Assembly (NCBI GenBank): GCA_039584815.1
Contig: JBDGXC010000002.1
Coordinates: 89,508 to 153,507 of the forward strand
Source: Gemmatimonadota bacterium
Lineage (GTDB): Bacteria > Gemmatimonadota > Gemmatimonadetes > Palauibacterales > Palauibacteraceae
Direction of reading: 5' to 3'
DNA length: 64,000 nucleotides
The notes under the pieces were generated by a model that saw only the letters and a list, made by a program, of their open reading frames with translations, did no database searches and was not told where the DNA came from. This document shows positions 19,676 to 22,742 of the stretch, piece after piece (within the stretch, counting starts at the first letter, position 1; every line of letters starts with the position of its first letter). The translations under genes were made by a program, and so were the position numbers.

Positions 19676-20065
19676 ATGGAGGGGAAAGAGATGGAAGCCT
19701 CCGATCGAGACCGGATCTTCGAGCGGGCCGGAGACGTCGGACGGCTCCTGTCGCAGGCGCCCGAGTACGGGTATCTGCGAGCCGCCATGCGGGACATCGA
19801 CGGTGATGAGGAGGCGAAGGGGCAGCTGGATCGGATCCGGGAGCTGCAGGAGAAGCTGATCGGGTTCCTCGAGCGTGATGAAGAGCCCCCGGAGGAGCTT
19901 CGCCAGGAGCTAGGCACGCGGAGCGAGGAGATGCAGGCCAGCTCTCGCTACCAGTCTCTCATTTCAGCGCAGGCGAACTTCGACCGGCTGATGGAAAAGG
20001 TCAACCAGGCGATCGCCCGCGGCTTGAAGGAGGGCGAGAAGTCGAGGATCATTCTCCCTTCATGA
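19676..20065 (+). CDS. YlbF/YmcA-like (UPF0342) protein
   Basis: GGAGGGG RBS. SQAPEY..DEEA region resembles the Com_YlbF family. Low confidence. Confidence 0.4.
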   Translation: MEGKEMEASDRDRIFERAGDVGRLLSQAPEYGYLRAAMRDIDGDEEAKGQLDRIRELQEKLIGFLERDEEPPEELRQELGTRSEEMQASSRYQSLISAQANFDRLMEKVNQAIARGLKEGEKSRIILPS

Positions 20066-20754
20066 TGCGCGTCCGGGCGAGTCTGGAGCGCGGCCTGCGA
20101 AGGGTCGTCGATCCGATCATCGACTGGATGGTCCAGGCAAGGGTGCACCCGAACACCCTGAGCACTCTCGGCTTCCTCATCACGTGCTCCTCGGGCTTCT
20201 TCTTCCACTCGCACCAGGTGCGCACGGCGGGCGCCCTGATCCTCGCCGGCGGCATATTCGACCTGTTCGACGGCACGGTGGCGAGGCGCACCGGGCTCGC
20301 GTCTCCGTTCGGCGCGTTCTACGACTCGACGCTCGACCGGCTGTCCGAGATCATCGTCTACGCCGGTCTCCTGTCGCTGTACAACGATTATCGGGCCGAC
20401 GCCAACGACGTGGTGATGATCTACGTGGTGATCCTGGCGATGGCCGGATCCCTGATGATCAGCTATACGCGGGCCCGCGCCGAGGCGCTCGGCATCGACT
20501 GTACCGTCGGGCTGATGCAGAGAGCCGAGCGGGTGATTCTGATCGGTGCGGCAGCCCTGCTGTTCGGAGAACAGGGAAACGGGGCGGTTCTTCGCATCGT
20601 GCTGTGGGTGCTGGCGATTTCCACCAATTTGACGGTCGTGCAGCGCATCTGGTGGGTGTACCGGAACACGCGACCCGAGGGAATCGCGGTCGGCGCGGCC
20701 GTGTGGAGAATGCCGGAATGGCTCCGTCGTAAATTAGACAAAACAGACAGTTAA
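20062..20754 (+). CDS. CDP-alcohol phosphatidyltransferase (phosphatidylinositol-phosphate synthase-like)
   Basis: DLFDGTVARRTG..G..D..D motif (D-G-x2-A-R-x8-G-x3-D-x3-D). Multiple TM helices. Immediately upstream of the inositol-3-phosphate synthase gene. Confidence 0.75.
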   Translation: MMRVRASLERGLRRVVDPIIDWMVQARVHPNTLSTLGFLITCSSGFFFHSHQVRTAGALILAGGIFDLFDGTVARRTGLASPFGAFYDSTLDRLSEIIVYAGLLSLYNDYRADANDVVMIYVVILAMAGSLMISYTRARAEALGIDCTVGLMQRAERVILIGAAALLFGEQGNGAVLRIVLWVLAISTNLTVVQRIWWVYRNTRPEGIAVGAAVWRMPEWLRRKLDKTDS

Positions 20755-20778
20755 ATACGTTTACCTGAAGTGGATTAG

Positions 20779-22107
20779 ATGATCATGAACGAGCAAAATA
20801 GCGGGCGGCACGTCGAGCCGGCCGAGGGCAGACTCGGAGTTCTTCTCGTCGGCCTGGGCGCCGTTTCCACGACGGTGATCGCCGGCGTCGAGTCCATCCG
20901 GAGAGGTCTCGGAAAGCCCATCGGTTCGATCACGCAGATGAGCACGATTCGCCTCGGGAAACGAACCGACGCCCGGACTCCGCTGATCCGAGACTTCGTC
21001 CCACTGGCCGATCTGGACGACATCGTGTTCGGTGCCTGGGATCCGATTCCCGACGATGCCTACGTGTCAGCCAGCGTGTGTGGCGTGCTCCGCCCGGAGG
21101 ACCTCGAGCCGATAGCCGACTTCATGAAATCCATCCGGCCGATGACGGCAGCGTTCGACCGGACGTACGTGAAGAAGCTCGACGGCCCGAACGTGAAGAA
21201 GGGGGCCAACAAGCTGGAGCTGGCCGAGCAGGTGCGCGAGGACATCCGCCGGTTCAAGACGGAAAGCGGTTGTGACCGACTGGTGATGGTGTGGGCCGCC
21301 TCGACCGAGATCTTCCTGACACCGCACGAGGTGCACGCCACGCCCGATTCACTCGAGCAGGCGATGCGGGACAACCACGAGGCGATCGCTCCCTCGATGC
21401 TTTACGCCTGGGCGGCGATTCAGGAAGGGGTCCCGTTCGCGAACGGTGCTCCGAACCTGACCGTGGATCTCCCCTGCATGCTGGAACTGGCGAAGCGCAA
21501 CAACGTCCCGATCGGTGGCAAGGACTTCAAGACCGGCCAGACGCTGATGAAGACTATTCTGGCGCCCGGGCTGAAGGCCCGGATGCTGGGTCTCGGCGGA
21601 TGGTTCTCGACCAACATCCTCGGAAACCGGGACGGAGAAGTACTGGACGATCCGGAGAGCTTCAAGACGAAGGAGGAATCGAAGCTCGGCGTCCTCGAGT
21701 ATATCCTGCAGCCGAACATGTATCCCGACCTGTATCGGGACATGTACCACAAGGTGCGGATCAACTACTACCCGCCGCGTGGAGACAACAAGGAAGGCTG
21801 GGACAACATCGACATCTTCGGGTGGATGGGCTACTCGATGCAGATCAAGATCGACTTTCTGTGCCGGGACTCGATCCTCGCGGCACCGATCGTGCTCGAC
21901 CTCGCCCTGTTCCTCGACCTGGCGCAGCGCGCGGGCCTGCACGGGGTGCAGGAGTGGCTGTCGTTCTACTTCAAGAGTCCGCAGACTTTGCCGGGACTCT
22001 ATCCTGAGCACGATCTCTTCATCCAGCACTGGAAGCTCAAGAACACGCTCCGCTGGATGATGGGCCAGGAGCAGATCACTCACCTCGGCGTCGAGTACTA
22101 CGACTGA
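20779..22107 (+). CDS. inositol-3-phosphate synthase (myo-inositol-1-phosphate synthase)
   Basis: 442 aa. The conserved MIPS core is present throughout (GLGGWFSTNILGNRDG, NGAPN, SYNHLGNNDG-like region). Confidence 0.9.
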   Translation: MIMNEQNSGRHVEPAEGRLGVLLVGLGAVSTTVIAGVESIRRGLGKPIGSITQMSTIRLGKRTDARTPLIRDFVPLADLDDIVFGAWDPIPDDAYVSASVCGVLRPEDLEPIADFMKSIRPMTAAFDRTYVKKLDGPNVKKGANKLELAEQVREDIRRFKTESGCDRLVMVWAASTEIFLTPHEVHATPDSLEQAMRDNHEAIAPSMLYAWAAIQEGVPFANGAPNLTVDLPCMLELAKRNNVPIGGKDFKTGQTLMKTILAPGLKARMLGLGGWFSTNILGNRDGEVLDDPESFKTKEESKLGVLEYILQPNMYPDLYRDMYHKVRINYYPPRGDNKEGWDNIDIFGWMGYSMQIKIDFLCRDSILAAPIVLDLALFLDLAQRAGLHGVQEWLSFYFKSPQTLPGLYPEHDLFIQHWKLKNTLRWMMGQEQITHLGVEYYD

Positions 22108-22742
22108 GCGCCAGCGGCGGGCTGTTCATCGTCTTCGAGGGAGTCGAAGGGGCGGGAAAATCGACGCACCTTCGTTGGCTGTCCGAGCGTCTAGATCGGG
22201 CGGGAATCGCGCATCTCGTCGTGCGGGAGCCGGGCGGAACTCCGGCCGGCGAGCGCATCCGCGGTATCGTGCTCGATCCGAACACGCCGGTCCTGCCTGA
22301 GACGGAGCTCCTCCTCTATCTGGCGTCGCGGGCCGAGTTCGTGCGGCGCGTCGTCAGCCCGGCTCTCGAGCGCGGTGAGCTCGTACTCGCGGACCGTTTC
22401 GAGCTGTCCACGTATGCGTACCAGGGCATCGCGCGACGTCTGGGACTCGACCGTGTGCGTGCCCTGAACTCTTTCGCCACCGGCGATGTGAAGCCGGACG
22501 GCACCGTTCTCCTTACGCTCGATCCTGAAGTAGGGCGCGGGCGCAAGCGAGGCGAGGCGGATCGGCTGGAACGAGAAGACGTCGACTTCCACCGCACGGT
22601 GGCACAGGCGTATTCGAGCCTGTCCCAATCGGAGGCCGGCGTGATCCGTGTCTCGAGCGACGGCCCGCTCGATGTGGTGCAGGACCGCATCTGGGCAGCC
22701 CTGGCACGGAAATGGCCGGACCGGTTTCCCGGTGCCGGATGA
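22104..22742 (+). CDS. tmk: thymidylate kinase
   Basis: P-loop FIVFEGVEGAGKST, the DRF/ELS region and the lid are all in one frame. No ATG/GTG/TTG lies upstream of the P-loop. The proposed start is a CTG at 22104 overlapping the upstream TGA. The ORF track begins only at the GTG at 22221, which would lack the P-loop. Confidence 0.75.
   Translation: MSASGGLFIVFEGVEGAGKSTHLRWLSERLDRAGIAHLVVREPGGTPAGERIRGIVLDPNTPVLPETELLLYLASRAEFVRRVVSPALERGELVLADRFELSTYAYQGIARRLGLDRVRALNSFATGDVKPDGTVLLTLDPEVGRGRKRGEADRLEREDVDFHRTVAQAYSSLSQSEAGVIRVSSDGPLDVVQDRIWAALARKWPDRFPGAG

Follow-up and report, generated by a model that had tools for sequence, protein, structure and literature searches.

Genes that start at a codon other than ATG, GTG, or TTG are a rare and already known kind in bacteria. 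They include infC and pcnB of Escherichia coli (AUU), ebpA of Enterococcus faecalis (ATT; PMC4447247), and sigR of Streptomyces (GTC; PMC5472188), all of which have no usable ATG, GTG, or TTG. Such starts make up ~0.05% of annotated starts in well-curated genomes, and CUG, AUU, AUC, and AUA initiate at ~0.02-3% of AUG in E. coli (bioRxiv 10.1101/063800). Evolutionary switches to CUG or AUU have been put at ~1e-5 to 4e-4 per start (PMC5622118). Here we analyze the thymidylate kinase gene, tmk, in a 64,000-nt stretch of DNA from an uncultured Gemmatimonadota bacterium (GenBank contig JBDGXC010000002.1, positions 89,508 to 153,507 of the forward strand; hereafter the window), where it follows the gene for myo-inositol-1-phosphate synthase (MIPS). 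The window tmk is most likely an intact, functional dTMP kinase gene without its canonical start. We propose, at a rough probability of 0.55, that this start was lost and that a CTG at position 22104 is now used in its place, probably by ribosomes terminating on MIPS.

The window tmk resembles the rare near-cognate genes in three further respects: (i) a near-cognate codon at the homologous N-terminal position, (ii) gene callers that shorten the protein, and (iii) an expected low initiation efficiency. Points of difference are a CTG in place of the ATT of infC, pcnB, and ebpA, the overlap of this codon with the stop of the preceding gene, and a start that is inferred from sequence. A regulatory logic (IF3-dependent autoregulation) has been shown for infC/sigR, whereas there is no evidence for one at the window tmk.

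The second group of related systems is translationally coupled gene pairs. Overlaps of the form NTGA are the commonest and most efficient geometry for coupling, which drops fast with distance and favors whichever start lies closest to the stop (PMC12548453, PMC10666635). The window locus is like the trpB-trpA-type -4 NTGA pairs (Huber et al. 2019, 2023) in that the genes are co-directional, the stop and the candidate start share TG, the downstream gene has no Shine-Dalgarno (SD) sequence, no promoter or terminator separates the genes, and another ATGA overlap occurs in the same operon. It is unlike them in that N is C, MIPS and Tmk are not subunits of one complex, and the coupling is putative. 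In the coat-lysis overlap of phages fr, MS2, and GA, a downstream start at or inside the end of the upstream gene, with no SD of its own, is reached by scanning reinitiation (Adhin and van Duin 1990, as summarised in PMC12548453 and PMC10666635). There, too, the start nearest the stop is preferred and is used by ribosomes terminating nearby. This arrangement resembles both the 20-nt overlap GTG that we propose as the ancestral tmk start and the present CTGA, with the difference that the phage cases use canonical starts and are experimentally shown.

Also close are two tmk genes of related Gemmatimonadota that NCBI annotates with ATT starts (MDT8435235.1, JAVVDU010000001; UCG77168.1, CP070670.1). 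They share with the window the gene itself, the MIPS-tmk neighbourhood, the loss of the canonical start, and a near-cognate codon inside or beside the MIPS 3' end. In those relatives the ATT comes from MIPS TAT TAC/GAT TAC and lies in the MIPS+1 frame, unlike the CTG of the window, which lies in the MIPS+2 frame. The window tmk adds one case to the near-cognate starts, in the -4 overlap typical of coupled pairs.

Results

The complete Tmk has no canonical start codon

The features of the MIPS-tmk junction on which the argument rests are as follows.

20779..22107, + strand: MIPS, 442 aa, C-terminal end ...ITHLGVEYYD and then TGA (from the open reading frame list)
22105..22107, + strand: TGA, stop codon of MIPS (direct sequence reading)
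22104..22742, + strand: proposed full coding sequence of tmk, 212 codons and then TGA at 22740-22742, no internal stop
22104..22106, + strand: CTG, best candidate start of tmk, forming CTGA, a -4 overlap with the MIPS stop
22122..22124, + strand: CTG, alternative near-cognate start of tmk at the Leu of G-L-F; the product would begin MFIVFEG
22128..22130, + strand: ATC, third in-frame near-cognate codon of tmk; a start here would cut into strand beta-1
22140..22166, + strand: GVEGAGKST, the P-loop (Walker A) of Tmk, 5' of the sole canonical start
22221..22223, + strand: GTG, start of the 173-aa P-loop-less "dTMP kinase" in JGI and NCBI (P0001, P0121)

A codon-by-codon walk along the tmk frame found it open downstream of the TGA at 22005-22007, with the GTG at 22221-22223 as its first ATG, GTG, or TTG. 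This agrees with a preliminary description of the same DNA, which had found no canonical start 5' of the P-loop and had pointed to CTG 22104, overlapping the MIPS TGA as CTGA. Both that overlap and the product it gave, L/M-SASGGLFIVFEGVEGAGKST, are borne out by sequence reading and translation; with an initiator Met the protein reads MSASGGLFIVFEGVEGAGKST... The P-loop segment lies in the tmk frame as described, but FIVFEGVEGAGKST spans 22125-22166 and not 22128-22166. The preliminary description also missed the second in-frame CTG at 22122, from which the N-terminus, MFIVFEG, would again be normal for a Tmk. The near-cognate codons in the tmk frame are CTG 22029, CTG 22053, CTG 22104, CTG 22122, and ATC 22128, and the N-terminal peptides of the two main candidates would be (f)MSASGGLFIVFEGVEGAGK for CTG 22104 and MFIVFEGVEGAGK for CTG 22122. 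We rejected CTG 22029 and CTG 22053 as starts: they would add 17-25 residues seen in no homologue, and the single-nucleotide polymorphisms (SNPs) in that stretch are non-synonymous when read in the tmk frame. No in-frame ATG, GTG, or TTG yields a complete conserved Tmk, and the same holds in eight further assemblies of this locus (see below).

The 212-aa product is recognizable as a thymidylate kinase along its whole length. It scores 160.8 bits against the dTMP kinase equivalog TIGR00041 (cutoff 83.25), with protein residues 6-196 matching profile positions 4-196 of 196. Such a full-length match requires residues encoded from ~22119 on, and because it includes the N-terminus, the P-loop N-terminus belongs to the fold of the dTMP kinase family (TIGR00041/PF02223). 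FIVFEG-VEGAGKST (22125-22166), which fits the pattern GxxGxGK(S/T) after strand beta-1, aligns with the P-loop of solved Tmks such as 4e5u, 3uxm, and 2pbr, and the P-loop is present in the product only with a start 5' of 22134. D97 and R98 are invariant and are followed by F, in keeping with the DR(Y/F) motif, and GRGRKRGEADRLE aligns with the Arg-rich LID region of relatives and of the Pseudomonas Tmk. Solved thymidylate kinases align with the product from end to end, as do 28 relatives that are 61-78% identical to it. Conservation of G6 and L7 is at least 90% across 29 relatives, and CTG 22104 is the only remaining near-cognate codon upstream of the nearly invariant G-L-F. Among solved chains, residue 1 of 3hjn_A corresponds to residue 7 of the 212-aa query, and residue 2 of 2pbr_A to residue 8.

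In the databases this protein exists only in shortened form. The sole exact entries are the 173-aa products from GTG 22221, P0001 (JGI, named dTMP kinase) and P0121 (NCBI), and an exact look-up of the CTG-start proteins (212 aa, 206 aa) found neither in a collection of 15 billion sequences; no pipeline has called them. GTG 22221 is the only canonical start, and JGI and NCBI agree on it, yet we find it scarcely credible that the 173-aa product is the real protein. It is without strand beta-1 and the P-loop, which are needed for ATP binding in every Tmk, and the 39 codons 5' of GTG 22221 are conserved and under purifying selection (see below). The 173-aa P-loop-less annotation is almost certainly wrong. 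The public record hence describes a thymidylate kinase without its ATP-binding loop, which would mislead genome-completeness estimates or metabolic reconstructions that depend on an intact Tmk. The same annotation error recurs in relatives, as 131-aa, 199-aa, and 202-aa calls by callers limited to ATG, GTG, and TTG. Correction of the shortened tmk annotation is part of the value of this locus.

Eight independent assemblies agree at the junction, and SNPs in tmk are synonymous

The 173-aa product is encoded on at least 10 contigs, which come from different JGI samples, and we fetched eight of these, one per sample; the source samples are JGI 3300041074-3300041087. The eight loci share 99.7-99.9% identity with the window. 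Each carries SNPs of its own, and bases 22067-22159 are exactly alike in all of them. This bears directly on the possibility that the missing start is a sequencing or assembly error, either a wrong base at 22104 or a spurious base in 22108-22124. The GC-rich sequence of the region (GCGGCGGGC) would favor such an error, as would the fact that the window is one base longer than relatives in which 25 nt separate the MIPS stop from the F codon of FEG. Against it, eight separate assemblies with different flanking SNPs agree at every base, and there is no homopolymer of at least 4 nt in 22005-22135. Moreover, no single indel rescues a canonical start: removal of one base puts tmk in the MIPS+1 frame, and this neighbouring frame also has no ATG, GTG, or TTG (GCG stands where relatives have GTG). 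A base-call error at the junction is very unlikely and effectively excluded. Among the explanations offered in the preliminary description (non-AUG initiation, termination-reinitiation, or a base-call error), a non-canonical start survives, and the last has lost its footing with the eight identical assemblies.

The SNPs also report on selection. Four population SNPs fall in tmk, 22160 AAA>AAG, 22193 CTA>CTC, 22211 GCG>GCT, and 22238 GGA>GGT, and all are synonymous third-position changes; the first three lie 5' of GTG 22221 and would mostly alter the residue in either of the other frames. With ~27% of possible changes synonymous, the probability of this outcome is ~0.006 for 4/4 and ~0.019 for the 3/3 upstream of GTG 22221. 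In comparisons with relatives over the 29 codons that begin at the F of FEG and stop just short of GTG 22221, 11-14 codon differences are synonymous and 4-8 are non-synonymous. Although these are small numbers, the synonymous SNPs and codon differences together indicate that the segment 5' of the annotated start is coding and constrained. The SNPs 5' of 22104 (22014, 22015, and 22066) are by contrast all non-synonymous in the tmk frame, consistent with a tmk start at or after 22104.

Junctions in relatives point to a lost GTG embedded in MIPS

The preliminary description had suggested a comparison of orthologous junctions, and the relatives do indicate how the canonical start was lost. The comparison covered 32 distinct MIPS-tmk junctions, taken from genomes and metagenomes of Gemmatimonadota. 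In a compact type that is widespread, the MIPS stop and the F codon of FEG are 25 nt apart (L012, L019, L089, L090, L096, L097, L169, and L177; 26 nt in the window), and tmk is in the MIPS+1 frame. At most compact junctions the tmk start is a GTG within MIPS GGT GTC (G-GTG-TC), which gives a 20-nt overlap and the N-terminus MSSTTTEG..GLF. The MIPS C-terminus ITHLGVEYYD fixes the sequence here and so leaves this embedded GTG no room for an SD. The GTG is created by the rare Gly codon GGT, which is found at 9/13 compact (short) junctions versus 2/16 junctions with spacers of at least 55 nt, at which tmk has a separate start of its own (Fisher p = 0.0027). At the homologues of window 22087-22089, GGT occurs in L015, L019, L089, L090, L093, L096, L097, L169, and L178. 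This enrichment argues that the embedded GTG is a selected tmk start. The synonymous MIPS site (the Gly of ...LG(V)EYYD) thus appears to be held as GGT by the overlapping tmk start, a constraint that gives the locus biological interest beyond the annotation of tmk.

The window departs from the compact type at two places.

22088..22090, + strand: GCG where compact-junction relatives have the embedded tmk GTG; out of the tmk frame in the window
22108..22124, + strand: stretch between the MIPS stop and TTC ATC GTC, 17 nt; 16 nt in eight compact-junction relatives

At the first, the MIPS 3' end reads GGC GTC GAG TAC TAC GAC TGA, with GGC GTC for GGT GTC and hence GCG for GTG. The second is a 1-nt insertion, by which the tail is 17 rather than 16 nt. 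The extra base places tmk in the MIPS+2 frame, to which the CTG within the universally conserved GAC TGA also belongs. Among the relatives, MIPS and tmk occur in all three relative phases, with spacers of up to 159 nt, and the Leu codon of G-L-F (window 22122) is TTG in L010 and L170-172. The metagenome scan returned no Tmk relatives closer than 68%, and the protein search showed a gap between 100% and 78% identity. The locus gives a clear mutational path that leads from an embedded GTG to a near-cognate CTGA at a -4 overlap by two changes, GGT>GGC and a 1-nt insertion, in either order.

Two other arrangements were seen at tmk 5' ends. The relatives whose Tmk is closest (75-78% identity) have a perfect 12-bp hairpin, GGAATCGGCGCC-GCGA-GGGCGCCGATTCC, and then GGAG between MIPS and tmk (L173 about 220-250; also L174, L175, and L009-L011), and their tmk has its own TTG or GTG start. 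The hairpin with an own start is a different solution at the MIPS-tmk junction. At L017 (about 2440-2500), an 18-nt unit (ATGGGTGATCGGCGCGAG) is present three times at the tmk 5' end, which results in three in-frame ATGs and a repeated MGDRRE N-terminus.

Usable canonical starts are missing from tmk in four other lineages

Loss of a usable canonical tmk start is not confined to the window.

L012, about 2480-2516: ATT only
L020 (chromosome CP070670.1), about 2471-2525: ATT only
L021, about 2456-2516: ATT, plus a GTG 31 codons upstream
L177, about 1441-1492: GGC GTC as in the window; ATC or ACG only

In L012, L020, and L021 the ATT is formed from MIPS TAT TAC or GAT TAC, and the NCBI proteins MDT8435235.1 and UCG77168.1 begin exactly at the ATT of L012 and L020, respectively. 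Prodigal-type callers shorten the start-less relatives to 131 aa, or to 202 aa with a start inside the P-loop; for the L020 type, 131-aa calls by other pipelines are found on 22 further contigs. All start-less junctions are at most 43 nt long (5/16 short versus 0/16 spaced junctions, p = 0.043 with lineages treated as independent). A clade-level pattern of canonical-start loss at overlapping junctions is modestly supported.

These lineages also bear on whether the window copy is a recent pseudogene, disabled by GGT>GGC and the 1-nt insertion, with the enzyme supplied by another tmk elsewhere. The two changes do look disabling next to the ancestral compact junction, there is no canonical start, and inspection for a second copy was limited to the 64 kb of the window, in which there is no second Tmk-type P-loop. 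We regard a pseudogene as improbable nevertheless, since all 212 codons are intact, the SNPs are synonymous in 4/4 cases, and the junction is fixed in at least eight samples. In addition, four other start-less lineages, one of them on the 22 independent contigs with 131-aa calls, would be unexpected if each were an independent recent pseudogene of an essential gene.

Taken across the clade, we put forward a broader and more tentative idea, which we hold to be possible rather than probable. At compact junctions, most translation of tmk may come from ribosomes fresh from termination on MIPS, so that the identity of the start codon would be nearly irrelevant, and the embedded GTG would have been lost independently at least five times, in the window and in the four lineages listed above. 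If true, these junctions would form a natural series in which near-cognate starts of an essential gene are shown to be tolerated by bacterial termination-reinitiation, and natural test cases for which signals a post-termination ribosome needs to restart. A clade pattern that reflects near-cognate-tolerant reinitiation would bear on an unsettled question in bacterial translational coupling.

CTG 22104 is the best candidate for the present tmk start

The relatives give the following history for the window tmk. The ancestral start was the GTG embedded in CTC GGT GTC GAG TAC TAC GAC TGA, with a 20-nt overlap and no room for an SD. A change of the Gly codon to GGC removed this GTG, and with an extra base after the MIPS stop the body of tmk came to share its frame with the CTG in GAC-TGA. 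We propose that CTG 22104 is now most likely read by initiator tRNA as Met. Its users would be ribosomes that have just finished on MIPS (termination-reinitiation), and a weak near-cognate codon without an SD may be enough for a low-abundance enzyme.

With CTG as the start, the two co-directional genes overlap by 4 nt, as CTGA at 22104-22107, which by the published work on coupling is an ideal place for termination-reinitiation. The first base of the overlap start, N, is C, outside the canonical NTG set (A, G, or T). By anti-SD duplex energies, no candidate start has an SD better than background, and these energies do not discriminate between candidates. The nearest thing to an SD is a weak SD-like GGCGGG 6 nt 5' of ATC 22128 (-5.5 kcal/mol; background median -3.6, 10th percentile -7.2). 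We found no promoter- or terminator-like site between MIPS and tmk, and the RNA fold of the junction (22060-22180) is not unusual relative to shuffled sequences (z = -0.18). Coupling of tmk to MIPS is a reasonable reading of this arrangement. The sequence data establish the missing canonical start, the reality of the junction in all samples compared, purifying selection on the N-terminal segment, and the ancestral state in relatives; the choice of near-cognate codon, and MIPS coupling as its driver, we infer.

Several points weigh against this proposal. CUG is a very weak start in E. coli, where overexpression of IF3 also lowers reinitiation (PMC2268962), and our literature search found no experimental report that reinitiating bacterial ribosomes tolerate CUG more than de novo initiation does. 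The evidence for the choice of initiating codon is indirect. CTG 22122 and ATC 22128 share the tmk frame, solved Tmks show that an N-terminus such as MFIVFEG is normal, and no SNP falls in 22104-22121, so that the SNPs bear on translation only downstream of those five codons. The 5/16 versus 0/16 contrast among relatives is only marginally significant, and the search for a second tmk covers only 64 kb of the genome.

The strongest rival reading is a downstream start. A functional tmk could begin at CTG 22122 (MFIVFEG...) or, less likely, at ATC 22128, in which case the 17 nt after the MIPS stop would be an untranslated spacer and the insertion harmless; an indel in a non-coding spacer requires no special explanation. 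Both codons are in the tmk frame. The solved Tmks 3hjn_A and 2pbr_A begin at or beside the aligned position of CTG 22122, and the TTG at the same Leu codon in L010 and L170-172 means that relatives could initiate there. GGCGGG, the strongest of the SD-like pairings, also lies upstream of both codons, with proper spacing only for ATC 22128, but its energy is within background. Furthermore, the G-L that precedes FIVFEG shows at least 90% conservation in relatives, and the window retains it as GGC GGG CTG. The third positions in 22107-22121 are G or C in 5/5 codons (weakly coding-like), and CTG 22122 lies 14 nt past the MIPS stop, while coupling efficiency drops fast with distance (PMC10666635). 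On balance we consider a downstream start less likely than CTG 22104 but a viable rival, and ATC 22128 is the least likely of the candidate tmk starts.

We also weighed a MIPS-Tmk fusion made by programmed -1 (or +2) ribosomal frameshifting near the end of MIPS, which the 99 nt of open tmk frame 5' of 22104, overlapping MIPS in the -1 frame, would permit. This was rejected. An X XXY YYZ slippery heptamer is absent from 21985-22107 and from 22005-22135, there is no homopolymer of at least 4 nt in these stretches and no stable predicted downstream structure (22060-22180), relatives vary in phase and have spacers of up to 159 nt, and SNPs 22014, 22015, and 22066, 5' of 22104, are non-synonymous in the tmk frame.

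Gene neighbourhood and variation in MIPS

The MIPS of this locus carries PF07994 and PF01658, according to JGI gene calls on identical loci. Upstream, in the same operon as tmk, a ylbF-like gene and a CDP-alcohol phosphatidyltransferase gene overlap as ATGA at 20062-20065. The order ylbF, CDP-alcohol phosphatidyltransferase, MIPS, tmk, and two S41 peptidases is kept in sister species from the same samples (L169, L170). Just 5' of MIPS, at window 20730-20790, lies an AT-rich 60-nt spacer (TAAATTAGACAAAACAGACAGTTAAATACGTTTACC...) in a genome of 67% GC. The spacer may be a regulatory or promoter region; a sigma-70 consensus scan of 20730-20790 gave no match. No tRNA genes, including that for initiator tRNA, were found in the window.

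Two of the eight assemblies (L004, L005) carry a cluster of five SNPs in the last 120 nt of MIPS (window 21988-22066), three of which are non-synonymous in MIPS. SNPs are sparse elsewhere in MIPS, and the cluster may be a small recombination tract. A further variant, L006 (JGI sample 3300041074), is missing 32 nt inside MIPS (L006 1398-1462; window 21321-21352). This deletion shifts MIPS into the tmk frame, ending at the TGA at 22005-22007, and JGI calls only a 247-aa C-terminal MIPS piece. L006 may represent a true variant with a disrupted MIPS, or else an artefact of assembly; a true variant would be a natural test of whether tmk needs MIPS translation.

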